Assembly: GCA_964291405.2 (NCBI GenBank)
Contig: OZ219926.1
Coordinates: forward strand, 4,320,001-4,384,000
DNA: 64,000 bases
Source: Thermodesulfobacteriota bacterium
GTDB taxonomy: Bacteria > Desulfobacterota > Binatia > Bin18
Direction of reading: 5' to 3'
The notes below the pieces were generated by a model. That model was not told the origin of the DNA. It was given only the letters and a program-made list of their open reading frames with translations, and made no database searches. The position numbers and the translations under genes were made by a program. Within the stretch, counting starts at the first letter, position 1, and each line of letters opens with the position of its first letter. Positions 33,388 to 40,541 of this stretch are shown here, one piece after another.

Positions 33388-33575
33388 AGTTTTTCTGTCC
33401 GGTCCTCCTATCTCGGGCTAGACGATAGGGTAGCAAATTGCCGGGTTATGGCTATCCCAGCGATTTCCAGAAGCCTGGTATTTCGCTTCTGCCTGTTTTC
33501 TTTATCTCTCGTGACTTTAGAATACGGACTGGTTATAAGTCTAGTCAGTAGAGACTATAAACTCTTGGAGTACAT

Positions 33576-33836
33576 ATGAGTAAAACCTGGCAGGTACAGG
33601 ACGCGAAGGCGCGGTTCAGCGAATTCCTTGAAGCGAGCCTTGCCGAAGGACCGCAAGTCGTAACCAAACGAGGGGTGGAGGCTGCGGTTTTGGTCTCCAT
33701 CGATCAGTGGCGACGATTAGAGCAGATGAGTAGGCCCGATCTGAAGGAATTGCTCCTCGCACCCGAAGCACGGACTGATACTCTGACGTCGCCACGAGAG
33801 AGACGTCGTCACCGCAGTTTGCCGAGCTTCGAGTAA
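33576..33836 (+). CDS. Orphan Phd/YefM antitoxin
   Basis: WQVQDAKARFSEFL...GPQVVTKRG; no toxin ORF follows. Confidence 0.88.
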   Translation: MSKTWQVQDAKARFSEFLEASLAEGPQVVTKRGVEAAVLVSIDQWRRLEQMSRPDLKELLLAPEARTDTLTSPRERRRHRSLPSFE

Positions 33837-33904
33837 AACGGAAAAGGCTGTAAATTGGGGCGTGTGTGGTCGTCTACAAGATGTATCTTTATCGCTTTCG
33901 ATAT

Positions 33905-34149
33905 CTATGATGAAGGGCGACCGGCATCTCTGACGACCTGCCATACGATGTAGATAATCATTCCGGCAACCATGAAGAGTCCAGCAAATCCCACAAGTTC
34001 GTAAGCGCTCATTCTCCAGACCCCCCGATCCCTTTCATAAGCAGTTCGATCCGTCGATGAAGAAGCACGATGAAGATACCAAGGACAAAATTCACTGTAA
34101 GGCCAGCTATGAGGAACTTGGCCGCGCTTTCTCGTTGTCGCGATGTCAT
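33905..34149 (-). CDS. Two coupled small membrane ORFs (34009-34149 and 33905-34012)
   Basis: MTSRQRESAAKFLIAGLTVNFVLGIFIVLL...GE* overlaps by ATGA with MSAYELVGFAGLFMVAGMIIYIVWQVVRDAGRPSS*. Confidence 0.4.
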
Positions 34150-34346
34150 GCTTGGTGAAAGTCTACTACACAGGCCATGCACTGACCAGAGTTGTTCCTC
34201 TACACTTTGGCGTTCGGCTGGGCTGGAAGCCCGCATCCGCAGTGACGCCGAGCTTTGAGATCAACACCGCCAGTTGCGTATTGACGACTTCTTCACGATT
34301 GCGCTGCTTAGGCATGAGTATCGGCAAGTCCTTCTTGGCGTCCCTT

Positions 34347-34374
34347 GTAGGGGCAATTCATGAATTGCCCCTAC
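34347..34374. repeat. Perfect 28-bp GTAG-type palindrome
   Basis: GTAGGGGCAATTCATGAATTGCCCCTAC; supplies the stop of 34371-34964. Confidence 0.85.
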
Positions 34375-34964
34375 CGCTCTCTGTTTCCTATCCAGGTGAC
34401 GCAGGAATCCGAAAAGATAATCGTATCTTCATTGGGATAACTGTGGGCGGTTTTGAGCGTCACACGCGGGCTCGTCTTGTCGAGCATCACCCAGACCAGC
34501 GTTTGGGGGGCTGGGCCTCGGGACGTGGCCGGAAAAGAATAGTCGAGACCAGCGCTCGATGAGGGTGCCGTGTCTGTACTGGCCCGGACAATACGTTGAG
34601 CCAGTGCCCGAAAGGCGGACTGGCCGCGCCGGCTGTCCGTCTGCTGGGCTTCAAAATGATAGTGCAGCGCTGGTGTGAGCTGGAGGTCAATAGGGCGAGC
34701 CAGGTTCACAATCCAGTCCGAGAACACTGGTTGTAACGCAGGGGGAGTATCCGTGCAGGCCAGGATTTCGCAGACGTGCTGGGTATTGTCATACGCGATA
34801 TGAACGATGTGGCTGGCCCCGATAATACTCGCCTGTACCTGGAATCGGGGCTGTTCCAGGCGCACCGTGGCCAGCGGTCTGAAGTGCTGAAAATCCACCC
34901 GGTCGGCGAGAACGTGAAGCCGGAGCTCGGCGGCGGATTGGTCCTTGTAGGTGAGCGTGCTCAT
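34371..34964 (-). CDS. DUF2617-like protein
   Basis: IIGASH...EILAC...TAHSYPNE pattern. Confidence 0.6.
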   Translation of the reverse strand: MSTLTYKDQSAAELRLHVLADRVDFQHFRPLATVRLEQPRFQVQASIIGASHIVHIAYDNTQHVCEILACTDTPPALQPVFSDWIVNLARPIDLQLTPALHYHFEAQQTDSRRGQSAFRALAQRIVRASTDTAPSSSAGLDYSFPATSRGPAPQTLVWVMLDKTSPRVTLKTAHSYPNEDTIIFSDSCVTWIGNRER

Positions 34965-34971
34965 GCGGTGT

Positions 34972-35808
34972 CTAGCCTGCGGCAACAACGGACGGGTGCA
35001 GGAGTTGAGATAGGGCTAACAGCCGGCCGAGCATCTCCCACACCCCGAGTAACTGGAACGCCATGACCACTATTGTCCCAGCCAACACGATCCGAATCCA
35101 GCCTTCGCCCTTGCTGACACCCCAGTGCGCTCCAAACCACGCGCCGATACTGGTCGTTATCGACAGGATCAGGCCCGCGCTCCAATCAACCTTTCCGTTC
35201 AGCGCAAAGACGCAGCAGGCAATGCCGGTCACGCCCATGACAATAACGACCTTCACACCGTTTGCCAGCATGAGATTCAAGCCGCCCATAGTGCTTAGCG
35301 CCACCAGTATAAAAATACCGGCCCCAATTTGCAGTAAGCCACCGTAGAGGCCGATACCGAAAAAGACGCCTTGAAGCAGTCGTCGCCCTCGATCTGTCCT
35401 ACTGACGGCCAGCAGTTTGCTATTGAGAACCGGTTCAAACACCACCGGGATGAGCAGGACCATCATCGTGATAGCCAACAAGGTCTGGAAGACCGCATCG
35501 TCCAGACGGACCGATACCAGCGCGCCGCACACCGAGCCCAGCATGGCCGGGATCATGAGCGTAATGGCTAAGCCGGAGTCGGTCTGATTCAGTTTTTTAT
35601 ACGCGGCCAGGGCAGTCAGGCTTTGCAGGACAACGGCCAAACGATTCGTGCCGTTGGCCACTCCCGGCGGCAGGCCGATCAGGATGAGGGCGGGCACGGT
35701 CAGCACGGCCCCTCCGCCGGAAACCGCGTTGAGAAAACCGGCGGCCAGACCGCTGAGGCTAATGAGGAGTATGTCGGTGAGTGACATGACACTAAAAAGG
35801 GCAGCCAT
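34972..35808 (-). CDS. TauE/SafE sulfite-exporter family membrane protein
   Basis: AGFLNAVSGGG...ANGTN...GLYGG. Confidence 0.9.
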   Translation of the reverse strand: MAALFSVMSLTDILLISLSGLAAGFLNAVSGGGAVLTVPALILIGLPPGVANGTNRLAVVLQSLTALAAYKKLNQTDSGLAITLMIPAMLGSVCGALVSVRLDDAVFQTLLAITMMVLLIPVVFEPVLNSKLLAVSRTDRGRRLLQGVFFGIGLYGGLLQIGAGIFILVALSTMGGLNLMLANGVKVVIVMGVTGIACCVFALNGKVDWSAGLILSITTSIGAWFGAHWGVSKGEGWIRIVLAGTIVVMAFQLLGVWEMLGRLLALSQLLHPSVVAAG

Positions 35809-35967
35809 AGCGGGCTGCCCCTACCATCTCGGTGTTTGATTTGTGGAGAACTGCACCGTCTCGCCGGGAATGTCGGTGTCTTTGGTGAGCACCTTGTCGG
35901 TCTTCAAGGGCACGACGATTTGATCGTACTACCAGATCGATTCACCGCTCCAATCACAACGTGACCG

Positions 35968-37182
35968 TCACCGTTTCTCAAATATTACAAGGCTCTCTCG
36001 GGACGCCACACGCCCGTATTGCCCCATTTGCTGCGCGCTATTCCCACGCCAGCGTATTGCCCGTATTTCATTGCATATGAGGCCTGCCCGCTCGCCCATT
36101 TCCGCAGTGTACTCATCAACAGGAATGACGCTGCCGTCGTAGCGAGCGTTCCCAACTACGAAAGCAACCTTTCCACTTGAGCGACAAACACGTTCGACTT
36201 CACACAGACATAAGTACATGTCAAAAAAATATCCTCGTAACATTTGTTGCATACGCTGGTCGCTCAAATTGTAAATGTTCCTTTCGAGCGATTCAGGTGC
36301 TTCGTACTCCTCCGCCGAGGGTCGTTTTGGGCGAGCCTCTGGATGGGAATGGAAAGTCTGATATCTAAGTGCTCGATTTGCTTCCCAGTCATGAAATGCA
36401 AACATCAATTCTATTCCAAAGATCCGCGTATAGTCGTGACGATTCGGGTACGGTGGGGAAGTAATCACGGCTGAGTATGACCCATTGGGCGCCGGGATGG
36501 TACGGGCATCTGCGACCCGGGCTTTCCAATTGCCATTGCTTTGGGGGCACGATTTACCGACGTCCGATAACATCATCCCGACTTGTTTCCTGAAGGAGTT
36601 CCAAACATTTTCGGCACTAGCGCCTTGGTTCAACCACCTCAACCATCCCCCGTTTGCAACCGCATGACTGAAATGTGGGAGGATGGAAATTAACGCCAAT
36701 CGAAAAAAATTCTGTTCCGAGGAGGAAGCATTTATGTTGTCTATATACCCAGCAATTGCATCGAACGACTCAAGTCGGCCCTCAGGCAAGGCTTTTCGTA
36801 TCAGTTCCGGGTAGGTTCGCCTCATTGGCAACGCGCCTCCCGACTTTGCGGCGCGTTGGAGAGTCCGCCATAACTTATCCAATTTCCCTCGTGAGAAAGT
36901 GGCCGTCTTCGTATTCGCAGCAAGAACGGCGAGTGGGGAAAGATCATAACCAGCGGCCGAGACACTCTTTTCCTTCGCAGCTAAGAGTGTGGTCCCCGCG
37001 CCCACAAAGGGATCAAGTATATCGTCCTGTTCGGTCAATCTCCATTCATCTACTAAAGAGTGGACGAGTTCACCAGTAAAGCTATGAGGAAAAAGATACC
37101 ACCGGTGGACTGCCTTTTCCCTTGCGGCTCTTGGCGTCATCCAATGTTTCCACTCAGCCTGTTCGGTAATGTGCCACTTCAT
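35968..37182 (-). CDS. DNA amino-methyltransferase, probably N4-cytosine
   Basis: Motif I DPFVGAGTT precedes motif IV TSPPY; HRWY..PHSF N-terminus. Confidence 0.88.
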   Translation of the reverse strand: MKWHITEQAEWKHWMTPRAAREKAVHRWYLFPHSFTGELVHSLVDEWRLTEQDDILDPFVGAGTTLLAAKEKSVSAAGYDLSPLAVLAANTKTATFSRGKLDKLWRTLQRAAKSGGALPMRRTYPELIRKALPEGRLESFDAIAGYIDNINASSSEQNFFRLALISILPHFSHAVANGGWLRWLNQGASAENVWNSFRKQVGMMLSDVGKSCPQSNGNWKARVADARTIPAPNGSYSAVITSPPYPNRHDYTRIFGIELMFAFHDWEANRALRYQTFHSHPEARPKRPSAEEYEAPESLERNIYNLSDQRMQQMLRGYFFDMYLCLCEVERVCRSSGKVAFVVGNARYDGSVIPVDEYTAEMGERAGLICNEIRAIRWRGNSAQQMGQYGRVASRESLVIFEKR

Positions 37183-37982
37183 GATGAATTATGATGTTCG
37201 AGAGTGGGTATTTCTGGTTGAACGGTACCGTCAGCCGTAACCATATGGGCGCTCGGTAATTCTACTCCATTGGCAGTTCCAAGTGTGATATCCCCGATGA
37301 GCTGGCGTAACTTCTCTCTGATTTCCTCATAGGGAGCACTGTCATTAGGGCCGCATATATAGTTGACAGTATCTCTGAGGTATTTGTCGGCAGTAAACAG
37401 GTAATCTGCTTTAGCAACTAGTGCACTCGCGTAAATGATACTGTCCATAGCCTCAATATAAATCAGCCCATTAATGCCTTTTGCCAACTCCAGCACATCA
37501 CGTGTCCGGTCTCTGTCATTTGTCCTGACCGCGATATCTGATTCTCCCAGCAGTGAGGTTAAACCATTGACTCCATCCTTGACCGTCGTCAACTCGCTGG
37601 TGTCAACTCGCTCACGAATCTCTTCTTCACGGAGACGTGACCACATCCGGTCCGGTATCCCCTCTTTCGCTGCGCTCAGGATAGCCCTCCCCCTTGCTCT
37701 CCCGGTGAGCAATTCGAGCTCGGAGACAGGCGCGTATTGGACCTGTACCTCCTGCGCCGAAAGGAAAGCTATAGTCTCTAAACCTCGTTTCAGGCTTTTC
37801 TTGAGACTGGCATCCTCTAGGTTGTCTACTCGTGCAACTGCGCGCTCTTTCTCTGCTGTAGATTTTTCGGGACTCCAAGGAAACAGGGCGTTACCCTTTG
37901 CGTATTCCAGGTAGATTCCGATGTAATGAAGTATGTTCGTATCTAAGAATGCTATCCTCTGAAGATCTTGCTGGCTATCCAT
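37179..37982 (-). CDS. Extended PIN-domain protein
   Basis: AFLDTNILH...SELELL...MDSIIYASAL...LFTADKYL; ATGA overlap with the MTase. Confidence 0.75.
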   Translation of the reverse strand: MDSQQDLQRIAFLDTNILHYIGIYLEYAKGNALFPWSPEKSTAEKERAVARVDNLEDASLKKSLKRGLETIAFLSAQEVQVQYAPVSELELLTGRARGRAILSAAKEGIPDRMWSRLREEEIRERVDTSELTTVKDGVNGLTSLLGESDIAVRTNDRDRTRDVLELAKGINGLIYIEAMDSIIYASALVAKADYLFTADKYLRDTVNYICGPNDSAPYEEIREKLRQLIGDITLGTANGVELPSAHMVTADGTVQPEIPTLEHHNSS

Positions 37983-39162
37983 GGTTTCGTGTTTCTGTTG
38001 GAGTCTGGCTGGGAAAAAGCTCCTCTTCGACTTTGTGAAGATAGTCCTCAGTAAATGGTAGCTGCACATTAGCATCTGCCTGTCCAAGTGCTCGGAAGCA
38101 TACTTTTACAAGCTGTCTGGGATTGGAGTAAGTGGTAGGACGAAAGGGAAGATCATCTGGAAACGGGAAAAGAACGCCCATCGATTCATCCGTCTCTCCT
38201 GACCGAGCAGCAGTTATCCGGGATTTCATCAGAGCGAATGCGTCCTCATACGTTAGGGGGTTAATCTGGAAGGTGCGGTTAGCAATGCGCGCCACCAGGG
38301 AGGGTTCAAGTTCTTTGGTAGTCTCGTAGGCATCGGGGGTCATAGACAACACAATCCAGAAGTCAATCTGCTCGCTTTCAGCGAGGTTGATTAATCGTCT
38401 CAGGGTAGCTAAGTAATCGTACGCCGCTCGCTTACTGAGCCGTTTTTGCAGACCTATTTCCTCAAATTCGTCGATCAGAAATGCAATAGCCTTGGCACCT
38501 GTCCCCTGTAAAATTGTTTTCAATATTGCACGAAAGTACGGCGCTTCCTCTCCTTCTGGGACCACACTCCCTTTTTGGCGGGGTACAAAGTCCCGATATT
38601 CAAAATATGGTTTGTTTACGACCTCGGTGACGATCCGAGCGAGACAGTGGGCAATCTGTTCATCGGTCGTAACTTCCGCGCTCAGGATGGCCTCCTGGAG
38701 AGGTATTGTCATGTCATGTTGGTGCCGACGCGGATGAAATGCGTCGGACAAATATTCCTCAAATCCCTTTCGGAAAAGATTTCTCTGATACGGAACAGTT
38801 ACATATGCTCCAGCCAGTTCCCAAATGAACTTAGCGAAATCTTTCCGCCCGATAGTACGCAACAACGTATTGGCGAGGTCGTAGAAATGCACTCCTGGGT
38901 TATCGAAGTAGAATGACCGGATTTGACGGCTTGGTAAAACGTCCGTGTGGAGCCACTGTAGAAGGCAAGTCTTTCCGGTCCCATACTCACCGACGAGAAC
39001 AATGGCCTTTACGCCCTCTCCACTCTGATGAACGTCGAGGAGCTGTCGCACGTCCGTCTCTAGTGCCGTCGGCAGTGACAGAGGGCCTGCAAGAGGTGTG
39101 CCCGTCGCAGCGGGCTCGAAAGGATTAACATTGAGCCTGAATTTTTGAAGAATGTCTGGCAT
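37975..39162 (-). CDS. AAA+/P-loop ATPase
   Basis: NPF N-terminus; Walker A GEYGTGKT; Walker B FLIDEFE; NPRQLV. Confidence 0.88.
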   Translation of the reverse strand: MPDILQKFRLNVNPFEPAATGTPLAGPLSLPTALETDVRQLLDVHQSGEGVKAIVLVGEYGTGKTCLLQWLHTDVLPSRQIRSFYFDNPGVHFYDLANTLLRTIGRKDFAKFIWELAGAYVTVPYQRNLFRKGFEEYLSDAFHPRRHQHDMTIPLQEAILSAEVTTDEQIAHCLARIVTEVVNKPYFEYRDFVPRQKGSVVPEGEEAPYFRAILKTILQGTGAKAIAFLIDEFEEIGLQKRLSKRAAYDYLATLRRLINLAESEQIDFWIVLSMTPDAYETTKELEPSLVARIANRTFQINPLTYEDAFALMKSRITAARSGETDESMGVLFPFPDDLPFRPTTYSNPRQLVKVCFRALGQADANVQLPFTEDYLHKVEEELFPSQTPTETRNHG

Positions 39163-40219
39163 GGTGGTCTGTCAACTCCATGGGTTCCAACACTATGTCT
39201 TTGTGTATGCGAATGTGAGAAATATAAGGACCATTCGCGGTCCTGTAATATCTTCGTAACACCAGTGTTTCCCCTTGCGCAGATGGCGCCGTGAGCGTTG
39301 CAAGGGCGCGGGATGTTGGAATCAACACAACGTGATTCGGCCATTCCCGAAGCAGACAGTCGATCGCATCGAAAAGCACACGGATCGGTTGTCGGCGAGC
39401 TTCGCAGAAGCGAACGATAAGATCAAGAATGGAGAATGATGTCCACTCATCTGGGGTACGTAGAGAAAGAAGGGAACGCACGGTCTGCCGTACAGGGCTG
39501 TCGATTCCCTTGAGGGAAGACCGGGGCCACGATACAGGAAACATAACCACACTACCATCGGCTTTTGGGCAGTATTCGTCGATGAGTCCCAACTCATTAC
39601 GTGCCCAGTAGCGCACTCCGTATAGGATCGCAGCTATGCTTGCGTACGAAGTCCAGCGTGCCGTGCGGCCTGTTTTGTCATTTCGAAAAATGACCTCCCT
39701 GGCGCGACAGGAACTGTAGCGGGTCCACTTAACAGGGAGACTGTTTTGACGAAAACTTGAAACGGAACTGGAGCTTGTGCCTGCGGACATGAAAAGATCA
39801 AAAAAAAGTGACCTGCATTGTTCATTTTTCAATACCAACGCTGCAAAATGGTCTCTTGCAGAATCACTGAGCACCTGATCTCTGTTGGCTGGGGCTGGCT
39901 GATGTAGTAGTTTGCAGACATCAGGATCATCATCGTTAATACGCAACCTCAGCCCATCTCGTTTGAGGGTGCGTAGACGAAGCAAGGTATTACGATAGTG
40001 GTATAGGGTCGTAGGTGCTGGGCCTGAACTACGCTGCGTAAGCACGAGGCTCTTTTCTTGTACTAACTTGTTAATTTCACCAGCCCTCAGTCCGTTCGGA
40101 AAGACAGCGACGGTTTTCAAGATACGGTGGAGCCCGGCGAACGAGACGGCGCGCATCCAATAATGATTCTGTCGTGCGCTGTCTTTATTAGACCGTTGTG
40201 CCTGAGTCATGTTGGTCAC
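39125..40219 (-). CDS. Uncharacterised, probably multi-winged-helix DNA-binding protein
   Basis: 364-aa ORF overlapping the ATPase start; the wHTH call is inferred from patterns such as TTLYHYRNTLLRL and YWARNELGLIDE. Confidence 0.65.
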   Translation of the reverse strand: MTNMTQAQRSNKDSARQNHYWMRAVSFAGLHRILKTVAVFPNGLRAGEINKLVQEKSLVLTQRSSGPAPTTLYHYRNTLLRLRTLKRDGLRLRINDDDPDVCKLLHQPAPANRDQVLSDSARDHFAALVLKNEQCRSLFFDLFMSAGTSSSSVSSFRQNSLPVKWTRYSSCRAREVIFRNDKTGRTARWTSYASIAAILYGVRYWARNELGLIDEYCPKADGSVVMFPVSWPRSSLKGIDSPVRQTVRSLLSLRTPDEWTSFSILDLIVRFCEARRQPIRVLFDAIDCLLREWPNHVVLIPTSRALATLTAPSAQGETLVLRRYYRTANGPYISHIRIHKDIVLEPMELTDHHARHSSKIQAQC

Positions 40220-40541
40220 TTCTCTACGTTTACGTCTCGGAAGCCTTTCTGAATGTTATCACGGAGAACGGAGAAGCAAAACTAAACGCTGGTAGGGAGA
40301 GGTCAAGCCCAATATAACATTTGGGTTACCGTTTCATTGTGTGGACAGCAGACTATGACTGTCTGTTGATTCCCTGCTACTACGCTAGTTTGCTGGTAGA
40401 TGGCCTACGCTATTGTGATTATCCGATCTTGAGTGAAAATAGAACTATCAGTGGGGTTGATGACGGAATCGGTCCCGCTTTCCTTGACCCTCATCCGGTC
40501 TCTGCCTATGATCCGAGGACGCTGGCTAAAGGAGGGCGGAC

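Follow-up and report, generated by a model that had tools for sequence, protein, structure and literature searches.

Four overlapping genes, here named A to D, are located on the minus strand of a 64,000-nucleotide (nt) stretch of the genome of a Thermodesulfobacteriota bacterium of the lineage Binatia (contig OZ219926.1, positions 4,320,001 to 4,384,000). The whole stretch is referred to as the window, and all coordinates are counted from its first base. An initial annotation, made from the letters of the sequence, had proposed an undescribed defence operon encoding a winged helix-turn-helix (wHTH)-like protein, an AAA+ ATPase, a PIN nuclease and a DNA methyltransferase. Observed in the analysis were the order and co-inheritance of the genes, their mobility, their folds and intact catalytic motifs, and a setting in defence islands. 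On balance, the cassette is probably a self-contained, mobile, four-gene restriction-modification (R-M)-like defence system, in which a recognition pair of the BREX/Ssp style is joined to a PIN effector. The features of the locus, with product lengths in amino acids (aa), are:

35847-40453, no strand: inserted island of about 4.6 kb, delimited by same-genus genome comparison and low G+C; its contents are the four genes only
35968-37182, minus: gene D, 404 aa, predicted SPPY amino-methyltransferase
37179-37982, minus: gene C, 267 aa from ATG, predicted PIN-fold protein with helical inserts
37975-39162, minus: gene B, 395 aa, predicted BrxD/DUF2791-like P-loop (AAA_22) ATPase
39125-40219, minus: gene A, 364 aa from GTG, predicted multi-winged-helix protein
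40220-40453, minus: AT-rich leader 5' of gene A, within the insertion, from reading of the sequence

The four genes span 4.3 kb. Neighbouring genes overlap by 38 nt (A/B), 8 nt (B/C) and 4 nt (C/D), exactly as had been described for these co-oriented open reading frames (ORFs), and the earlier impression of an AT-richer segment was also correct, with a G+C content of 0.46-0.53 over positions 36000-40500, whereas most 500-base windows of the flanks have 0.56-0.63. An alternative start for gene A, the ATG at 40210, gives a 361-aa product which agrees with the relatives, and is probably the start used. The longest ORF for gene C begins with TTG at 38087 (302 aa); the relatives begin at the ATG instead. 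A consensus scan of the leader (40220-40453) revealed no minus-strand sigma-70-like site upstream of gene A. In the promoter and terminator scan, which was compared with shuffled sequences, five promoters (4.1 expected) and 12 terminators (4.5 expected) were found.

The borders of the island were determined by comparison with five genomes of the same genus. An orthologous thiolase gene was present in all five (88-93% DNA identity), and in each of them homology to the window ends at 35846 and picks up again at 40454-40479, the tauE and thiolase genes being 57-80 bp apart and the island absent. Because the flanks are adjacent in all five genomes, about 4.6 kb must have been inserted into a divergent intergenic region. 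No recombinase gene was seen inside the insertion, and no clear target-site duplication was found at its borders by eye. The source genome carries one copy of the cassette. Among 40 relatives surveyed, a divergent copy was found in one of 24 genomes of the same genus, and the 16 relatives outside the genus but within the class gave no match. The divergent copy has the same gene order, with identities to the window of 37% (A), 42% (B), 27% (C) and 45% (D), and carries an IS4/5 transposase between B and C. The cassette is a discrete, horizontally mobile unit.

To survey its distribution, an alignment of A was used as query against one genome per species, which yielded 57 loci. These were scored by the pattern of genes present at 80% coverage or more and in order. 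The complete arrangement A-B-C-D was found in 36 of the 57. The remainder comprised A only (eight loci), no gene at this coverage (five), A, B and D (three), A, B and C (two), and A, C and D, A and D, and A and B (one each). Incomplete loci were cut by contig ends, interrupted or decayed, with insertion sequence (IS) elements in some. All 57 loci come from metagenome-assembled genomes, which by record title belong to at least ten phylum-level lineages including Binatia, Latescibacterota, Nitrospirota and Acidobacteriota. No relatives of A were found in the plasmid and phage/virus collections PLSDB, INPHARED and IMG/VR.

Since this first set had been found through A, a second scan of metagenome contigs was anchored on C and gave 21 loci, several of them near-duplicates. 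Gene B adjoins C in 20 of the 21, the remaining contig being 1 kb long. Gene A is present in 14; the other seven contigs end within or just before B or, in L071, just upstream of C. Gene D is present in 13, and the other eight contigs end soon after C. Thus, on contigs long enough to judge, none of the loci was without a partner gene. The A-B-C-D arrangement is conserved far beyond chance, and the synteny across genomes that the initial annotation had asked for is borne out, as is its view of the four genes as a single conserved mobile unit, which is documented by the 4.6-kb indel, the 36 complete loci and the C-anchored contigs. The identities of the four genes to those of the window co-vary, with Spearman coefficients of 0.77-0.94, which are indicative only as related loci are not independent; for D the values are 0.91 with A and 0.87 with B. 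The ratio of nonsynonymous to synonymous substitution rates (dN/dS) was 0.11-0.31 for all four genes (20 estimates from five pairs; C in L012/L013 was unusable), and all four are under purifying selection. Two copies of the cassette (L028 and L053) lie on one contig of a single Vicinamibacterales genome; dS came out as 0 in this pair, so that at least the first gene compared is apparently without synonymous differences.

In eight loci from four phyla (L002, L003, L004, L007, L008, L010, L015 and L037) the cassette is embedded in a Type I R-M locus, in the order hsdM-hsdS-[A-B-C-D]-hsdR on one strand; neighbours were grouped by clusters, and their Pfam identities were checked on L015 only. A DUF499 gene is located nearby in about ten loci (cluster-based; Pfam checked on L020 and L022). 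Among 97 nearest neighbours of at least 250 aa, a count which left out seven neighbours over 1200 aa, nine match Type I restriction endonuclease models, five Type I specificity models and five "mad5" models. MAD5 was likened to restriction-modification components by the authors of MADS in their account of that system, and the five "mad5" neighbours may for this reason be HsdM-like. The loci thus lie in defence surroundings, to which the initial annotation had pointed as a check, with eight loci between hsdS and hsdR and Type I neighbours among the 97. The hsd genes and the cassette may travel together as one composite island. Two further neighbours were recorded: a RiboL-PSP HEPN protein gene beside the cassette in L050 (3660-4259, minus strand), and a Type IIG restriction-methyltransferase gene directly upstream of A in L082 (33-3503, plus strand; PADLOC E = 0).

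These surroundings bear on whether the cassette serves defence at all. It could instead be a selfish addiction cassette acting by post-segregational killing, or an epigenetic or regulatory module which controls host genes. Spread as a bare 4.6-kb insertion without a recombinase, and the many copies that are decayed or IS-interrupted, would fit such a role, and restriction-modification modules can act as addiction elements. The embedding in Type I R-M loci, the DUF499 genes alongside, a make-up which fits methylation-based defences and the purifying selection on all four genes argue the other way, and a role outside defence is considered very improbable.

The assignments first made for the four products have stood up: the first protein as wHTH-like, the second as an ATPase with GEYGTGKT and FLIDEFE motifs, the third as an enlarged PIN protein with the pattern DTN...E...D...TAD, and the fourth as an SPPY-type amino-methyltransferase. 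Gene A gave no match to Pfam, PADLOC or NCBIfam models, and a Pfam scan of 22 members of its family at E <= 10 returned chance matches only. More than 375 relatives were found, none of them named, at 53-92% identity among the matches listed; the family is compact, with 208 representatives in 1.84 billion proteins. Its structure was predicted with a local confidence score (pLDDT) of 78 and a predicted template modelling score (pTM) of 0.77. By alignment of this model with VIA, residues 22-117 form a winged helix (Z about 9). The model also resembled the DNA-recognition domain of FokI (1fok_A; 167 residues aligned, root-mean-square deviation (rmsd) 3.7) at Z 9.1, which is only just above the stated noise band of the tool, and that of N.BspD6I (Z 7.2, 165 residues aligned); tandem winged-helix proteins were matched as well. 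Foldseek gave no match at E <= 0.001. One weak Foldseek row, to SspB 6lb9 (probability 0.69, TM 0.28), did not recur in the best 50 VIA rows and was set aside as too weak. A profile search with A against PDB sequences returned nothing. For residues 118-347, language-model features pointed to unnamed clusters (0.88-0.89) and to DpdG (0.81), which is a lead only. Based on the model, A is a predicted winged-helix DNA-binding protein.

The recognition helix of A (TLYHYRNT) is invariant. Outside the first winged helix the only near-invariant polar residues among 54 members are D214-E215 and S334-H335. The initial annotation had proposed a Foldseek search with the 364-aa protein, in which a nuclease fold would have pointed to an R-M variant; the fold matches are winged helices, and A as a hidden PD-(D/E)xK nuclease was rejected, as no (D/E)xK motif runs across the 54 divergent members and no nuclease fold appeared, though residues 118-347 were barely tested.

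Gene B matched Pfam AAA_22 (5.6e-10) and, over the P-loop stretch of residues 39-76 only, Pfam BrxC_BrxD (4.2e-6; 26.4 bits, cut-off 22.2). Its language-model features resembled those of the DUF2791/BrxC_BrxD/AAA_22 clusters at 0.98. The Walker motifs are intact: 19 sequences show no variation in GEYGTGKT and FLIDEFEE, which hold Walker A (G58-K64) and Walker B (D231-E232). A single-sequence PDB search with B gave chance-level rows only. Fusions of A and B were found in L050 (731 aa) and P0251 (712 aa) and, with the 38-nt overlap in the window, link the two genes. From these sequence features B is assigned as a putative BrxD/DUF2791-like P-loop ATPase. Walker A and Walker B lie about 165 residues apart, and the insert between them (residues about 66-227; window 38470-38990) contains the strongly conserved motifs FYFDNPGVQFYDLA, KPYFEYRDF and EGEEAPYF.

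Gene D matched the PADLOC model MTase_II PDLC03224 (1.6e-56) and, above the cut-off, Pfam N6_N4_Mtase (1.2e-7). The other PADLOC matches listed are Type II methyltransferase models and a weak one to mad2 (8.9e-6), on the S-adenosylmethionine motif. Among PDB sequences, cytosine-N4 methyltransferases and a putative modification methylase were weakly matched. Motif I (DPFVGAGTT; FxGxG) precedes motif IV (SPPY), and D is a predicted Type II-like SPPY amino-methyltransferase. The SPPY motif suggests N4-cytosine as the target base, with N6-adenine as the alternative. The protein is evenly conserved throughout, and a comparison of 20 sequences showed no hypervariable stretch; together with the invariant recognition helix of A, this suggests one fixed DNA target motif throughout the cassette family.

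The position of D was found to vary. The order is D-A-B-C in L084/L085. In a six-gene variant (L076-78, L082 and L086; partial in L079-81 and L083) two extra co-oriented genes lie between C and D (L076 3409-6287; L082 6624-9449). One encodes a NurA-like protein of 358-389 aa, for which the Pfam E values of 0.002-0.007 are below the Pfam cut-off. The other encodes a HerA-like protein of 568-574 aa (PADLOC HerA 1e-6 to 8e-8; mad8 2e-8). It could be argued from this mobility that A-B-C form a methylation-independent ATPase-nuclease defence like Septu or HEC-03, with D linked to it as a separate enzyme (an orphan, a protection from other restriction systems, or an addiction partner). L050, which keeps the A-B fusion and C without a methyltransferase within the locus, would agree with this, as would the larger family of D (2172 matches against 375 for A). 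Yet D is found in every locus with enough sequence save L050 and decayed copies, co-varies in identity with A and B as given above, shares 4 nt with the C gene in the window and stays adjacent even when relocated. A separate D is thus regarded as improbable.

The structure of C was predicted with good scores (pLDDT 90, pTM 0.87). The 17 best rows of the VIA alignment are VapC/PIN-type chains (Z 8.7-10.6), the best being 2fe1_A (130 of 130 residues aligned, rmsd 3.0). We take 2fe1, 1y82, 1w8i and PcrIIC1 to be PIN proteins. Foldseek returned the same VapC/PIN chains at probability 0.9-1.0, yet with E values of only 7e-3 or more. No Pfam, NCBIfam or PADLOC family, curated PIN models included, matched C at E <= 0.1, and a profile search against PDB sequences gave chance-level rows only. 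In 21 sequences, with identities as low as 25%, residues D14, T15, E90, D180 and D199 do not vary, and the four acidic ones (D14, E90, D180 and D199) correspond by sequence to the metal-binding set of PIN domains. C is a predicted PIN-fold nuclease, the PIN fold being a three-layer, Rossmann-like sandwich whose sheet is parallel.

The substrate of C separates two versions of the system. In one, which follows the initial annotation, D provides the self mark, unmethylated DNA is sensed by A and B, and the PIN protein is an RNase acting in trans on tRNA, rRNA or mRNA, which leads to growth arrest or death, i.e. abortive infection, with no cutting of the invader's DNA. The nearest solved folds of C are those of VapC-type toxins, and such toxins are RNases. 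PIN RNase effectors have been validated elsewhere, in HEC-03 and DS-3/DS-5, according to the available descriptions, and PIN proteins are presented as "backup suicidal" endoRNases in BREX and Dnd neighbourhoods in the accounts given in PMC10853773 and PMC12839542. On the other side, PcrIIC1, presumably a DNA-acting PIN-like protein, ties with the VapC toxins (Z 10.5 for PcrIIC1; Z 9-10.6 for the tied group), and the NurA-like and HerA-like genes stand beside the PIN gene in the six-gene variant. Archaeal NurA-HerA process DNA, and the variant leans, by analogy, towards a DNA target. Killing of the cell at any unmethylated site would moreover be costly after acquisition or replication. An RNase acting by abortive infection is held to be unlikely.

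None of the four proteins matched PglZ, BrxL, DrmA/B, PD-(D/E)xK or HNH models in Pfam, PADLOC or NCBIfam. The absence of the BREX and DISARM hallmark partners and of these restriction nucleases, both claimed earlier, was thus confirmed. The claim that the system is undescribed holds for PADLOC 2.0.0, which lacks a model for either A or C, both for the window and for the divergent six-gene variant, and for the literature searched, in which no description of the A-B-C-D gene set was found; a listing in paper supplements or in the newest DefenseFinder models is still possible. The untested candidate systems of the Payne preprint are, by its own account, searchable in PADLOC.

The cassette was compared with each of the systems it resembles. 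Multi-wHTH proteins (DndG, SspB, BrxA and the FokI recognition domain) that operate with ORC/Cdc6-class ATPases (SspC, BrxC and BrxD) are described in PMC10853773 and PMC12839542 as DNA recognition or scanning cores, and such pairs are found in Ssp, BREX and Dnd-related systems. Ssp shares with the cassette a separate multi-wHTH DNA binder beside an ORC/Cdc6-class AAA+ ATPase, together with a DNA-modifying enzyme and a nuclease (PMC10853773). The cassette differs from Ssp in its predicted methylation in place of phosphorothioation and in its PIN effector in place of SspE or SspFGH. No SspA or SspD is encoded in the insertion, and none of the four genes is cysteine desulfurase- or phosphoadenosine phosphosulfate (PAPS)-reductase-like; nothing matched PF13182 in the source genome, and A has no PADLOC SspB match. 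With BREX it has in common a methyltransferase and a multi-HTH binder in one operon (PMC12839542), and B is a putative counterpart of the ORC/Cdc6 ATPase of the BrxC_BrxD/DUF2791 type found there. BREX has six or more genes, against four in the cassette, which is without PglZ, BrxL and BrxB, has a 404-aa N6_N4-type enzyme and not PglX as D, and adds the PIN effector; PglX and PglZ models gave no match among the four proteins.

In MANTIS/Gao_RL and the DUF499-centred "BREX-related" systems, the methyltransferase is loaded by an AAA+ ATPase together with a co-factor, after which restriction falls to another protein, a nuclease, according to the MANTIS preprint. Methylation-based defence, an ATPase-loaded methyltransferase and a separate nuclease would thus be common to both, whereas the ATPase there is of another family (DUF499, inferred from PMC12839542) and the effector is a helicase-nuclease. 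The PADLOC models of these systems did not match A, B or C, and DUF499 was met only as a neighbour in the ten or so loci mentioned. The Orc/Cdc6 systems with a restriction endonuclease plus a triple-wHTH protein resembling DndG, and the "HerA/FtsK capture" systems, have a separate protein with two to four wHTH domains, akin to DndG, SspB and FokI, and in some cases HerA/FtsK, which may be compared with the six-gene variant; they differ in their active or inactive restriction endonuclease domains, and the available portion of PMC10853773 mentions neither PIN nor methyltransferase for them. In HEC-03, which has been found embedded in another defence system, a VapC-like PIN effector likewise goes with an ATPase; this is an ABC-type ATPase, and neither a methyltransferase nor a wHTH protein belongs to the system. 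PADLOC, which is taken to carry the HEC models, had no match to C.

Type II R-M shares a small amino-methyltransferase and a nuclease with the cassette. To our knowledge it needs no ATPase, and its nucleases are of the PD-(D/E)xK, HNH, GIY-YIG or PLD type. Restriction endonuclease models did not match A, B or C, with residues 118-347 of A and the insert of B barely or not covered by fold comparison. For DISARM, none of the four proteins gave a match to a Drm model (DrmA, DrmB helicase/DUF1998) at E <= 0.1. For MADS, there was no mad6-8 match among the four window proteins, the HerA-like gene of the six-gene variant touching mad8 as noted; MAD6, MAD7 and MAD8 are mandatory in the model of the MADS authors, as they describe it. 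Judged by its sequences, the cassette is not a member of BREX, Ssp, MADS or DISARM.

Since its make-up matches that of methylation-based, ATP-dependent defences, the cassette is read as one of them, and we infer all functional steps, i.e. methylation as the self mark, binding by A and B, the switching-on of C and the kind of substrate it cuts, on this basis. D would methylate a fixed DNA motif and so mark host DNA as self. A and B would act as an ATP-driven DNA recognition or scanning pair, as SspB-SspC or BrxA-BrxC do, and loading of D, a task of the ATPase in MANTIS, may be a further role of theirs. Where foreign DNA is unmethylated, A and B would engage C, a putative metal-dependent PIN nuclease, as the effector. 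Its target is most likely DNA itself, and less likely RNA, because of the NurA/HerA variant and because recognition takes place on DNA. In this form the system would represent a minimal ATP-dependent methylation-based immunity, in which a wHTH reader and a BrxD-type ORC-like ATPase license a PIN nuclease to destroy unmethylated invader DNA. This last form is put forward tentatively, as possible rather than probable.

Several points weigh against an R-M-like defence with a recognition pair of this kind. B stays below the curated NCBIfam BrxD model (23.7 bits, cut-off 350) and does no more than touch the SspC model (PADLOC SspC at E 0.054). A was not recognized as DUF4007/SspB by hhalign (probability 4.8%, from 54 A-family and 7 DUF4007 proteins), a comparison which says nothing on a shared fold. 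The FokI likeness of A is marginal, and most of the protein beyond residue 117 was barely tested by fold comparison. Because VapC toxins tie with PcrIIC1, the fold of C does not settle between DNA and RNA as substrate, and most PIN domains of the VapC-like kind are RNases. The assignment to NurA is weak. L050 is without a methyltransferase in the 14.7 kb covered, so D is perhaps not obligatory. A single composite island may be the origin of all eight loci embedded in Type I systems. Finally, a phage, plasmid or methylation phenotype of the cassette is a prediction from its genes.

The genes flanking the cassette are metabolic: TauE, DUF2617 and luciferase-like monooxygenase genes on one side, and thiolase, ChsH2-like and CoA-transferase genes on the other. 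No tRNA gene was found in the 64-kb window. A strong hairpin of 10 pairs followed by a T run is located at 35797-35822 (minus strand), about 145 nt downstream of gene D and at the annotated start of tauE. As it is kept in relatives without the island, it predates the insertion; from its sequence it could end the cassette transcripts. A gene for a Phd/YefM-type antitoxin of 86 aa was identified at 33576-33836 (plus strand; Pfam 1.5e-15), in a second patch of low G+C (0.50-0.53 at 33500-34500). No intact toxin ORF lies directly after it, and it may be an orphan or part of a decayed toxin-antitoxin pair.

BREX, DISARM, Ssp, MADS and MANTIS are large methylation-based defences outside the classical R-M types, whose mechanism is in most cases unresolved. 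In the cassette the same scheme, with a methyltransferase, an ORC-type ATPase, a multi-wHTH reader and a nuclease, is condensed to 4.3 kb. Discovery pipelines based on RefSeq would miss it, because all 57 loci are metagenome-assembled and none was found in the plasmid and phage collections searched. We know of no R-M system with a PIN effector fold. If the reading is true, the cassette would stand as the first case of a PIN effector in a restriction-modification-like system, and as a four-gene stand-in for the recognition machinery of BREX and Ssp, with NurA-HerA as an optional DNA-degrading add-on. If active in a laboratory host, it would provide a tractable model of how methylation state is read by an ATPase-winged-helix pair and of whether DNA can be restricted by a PIN protein.

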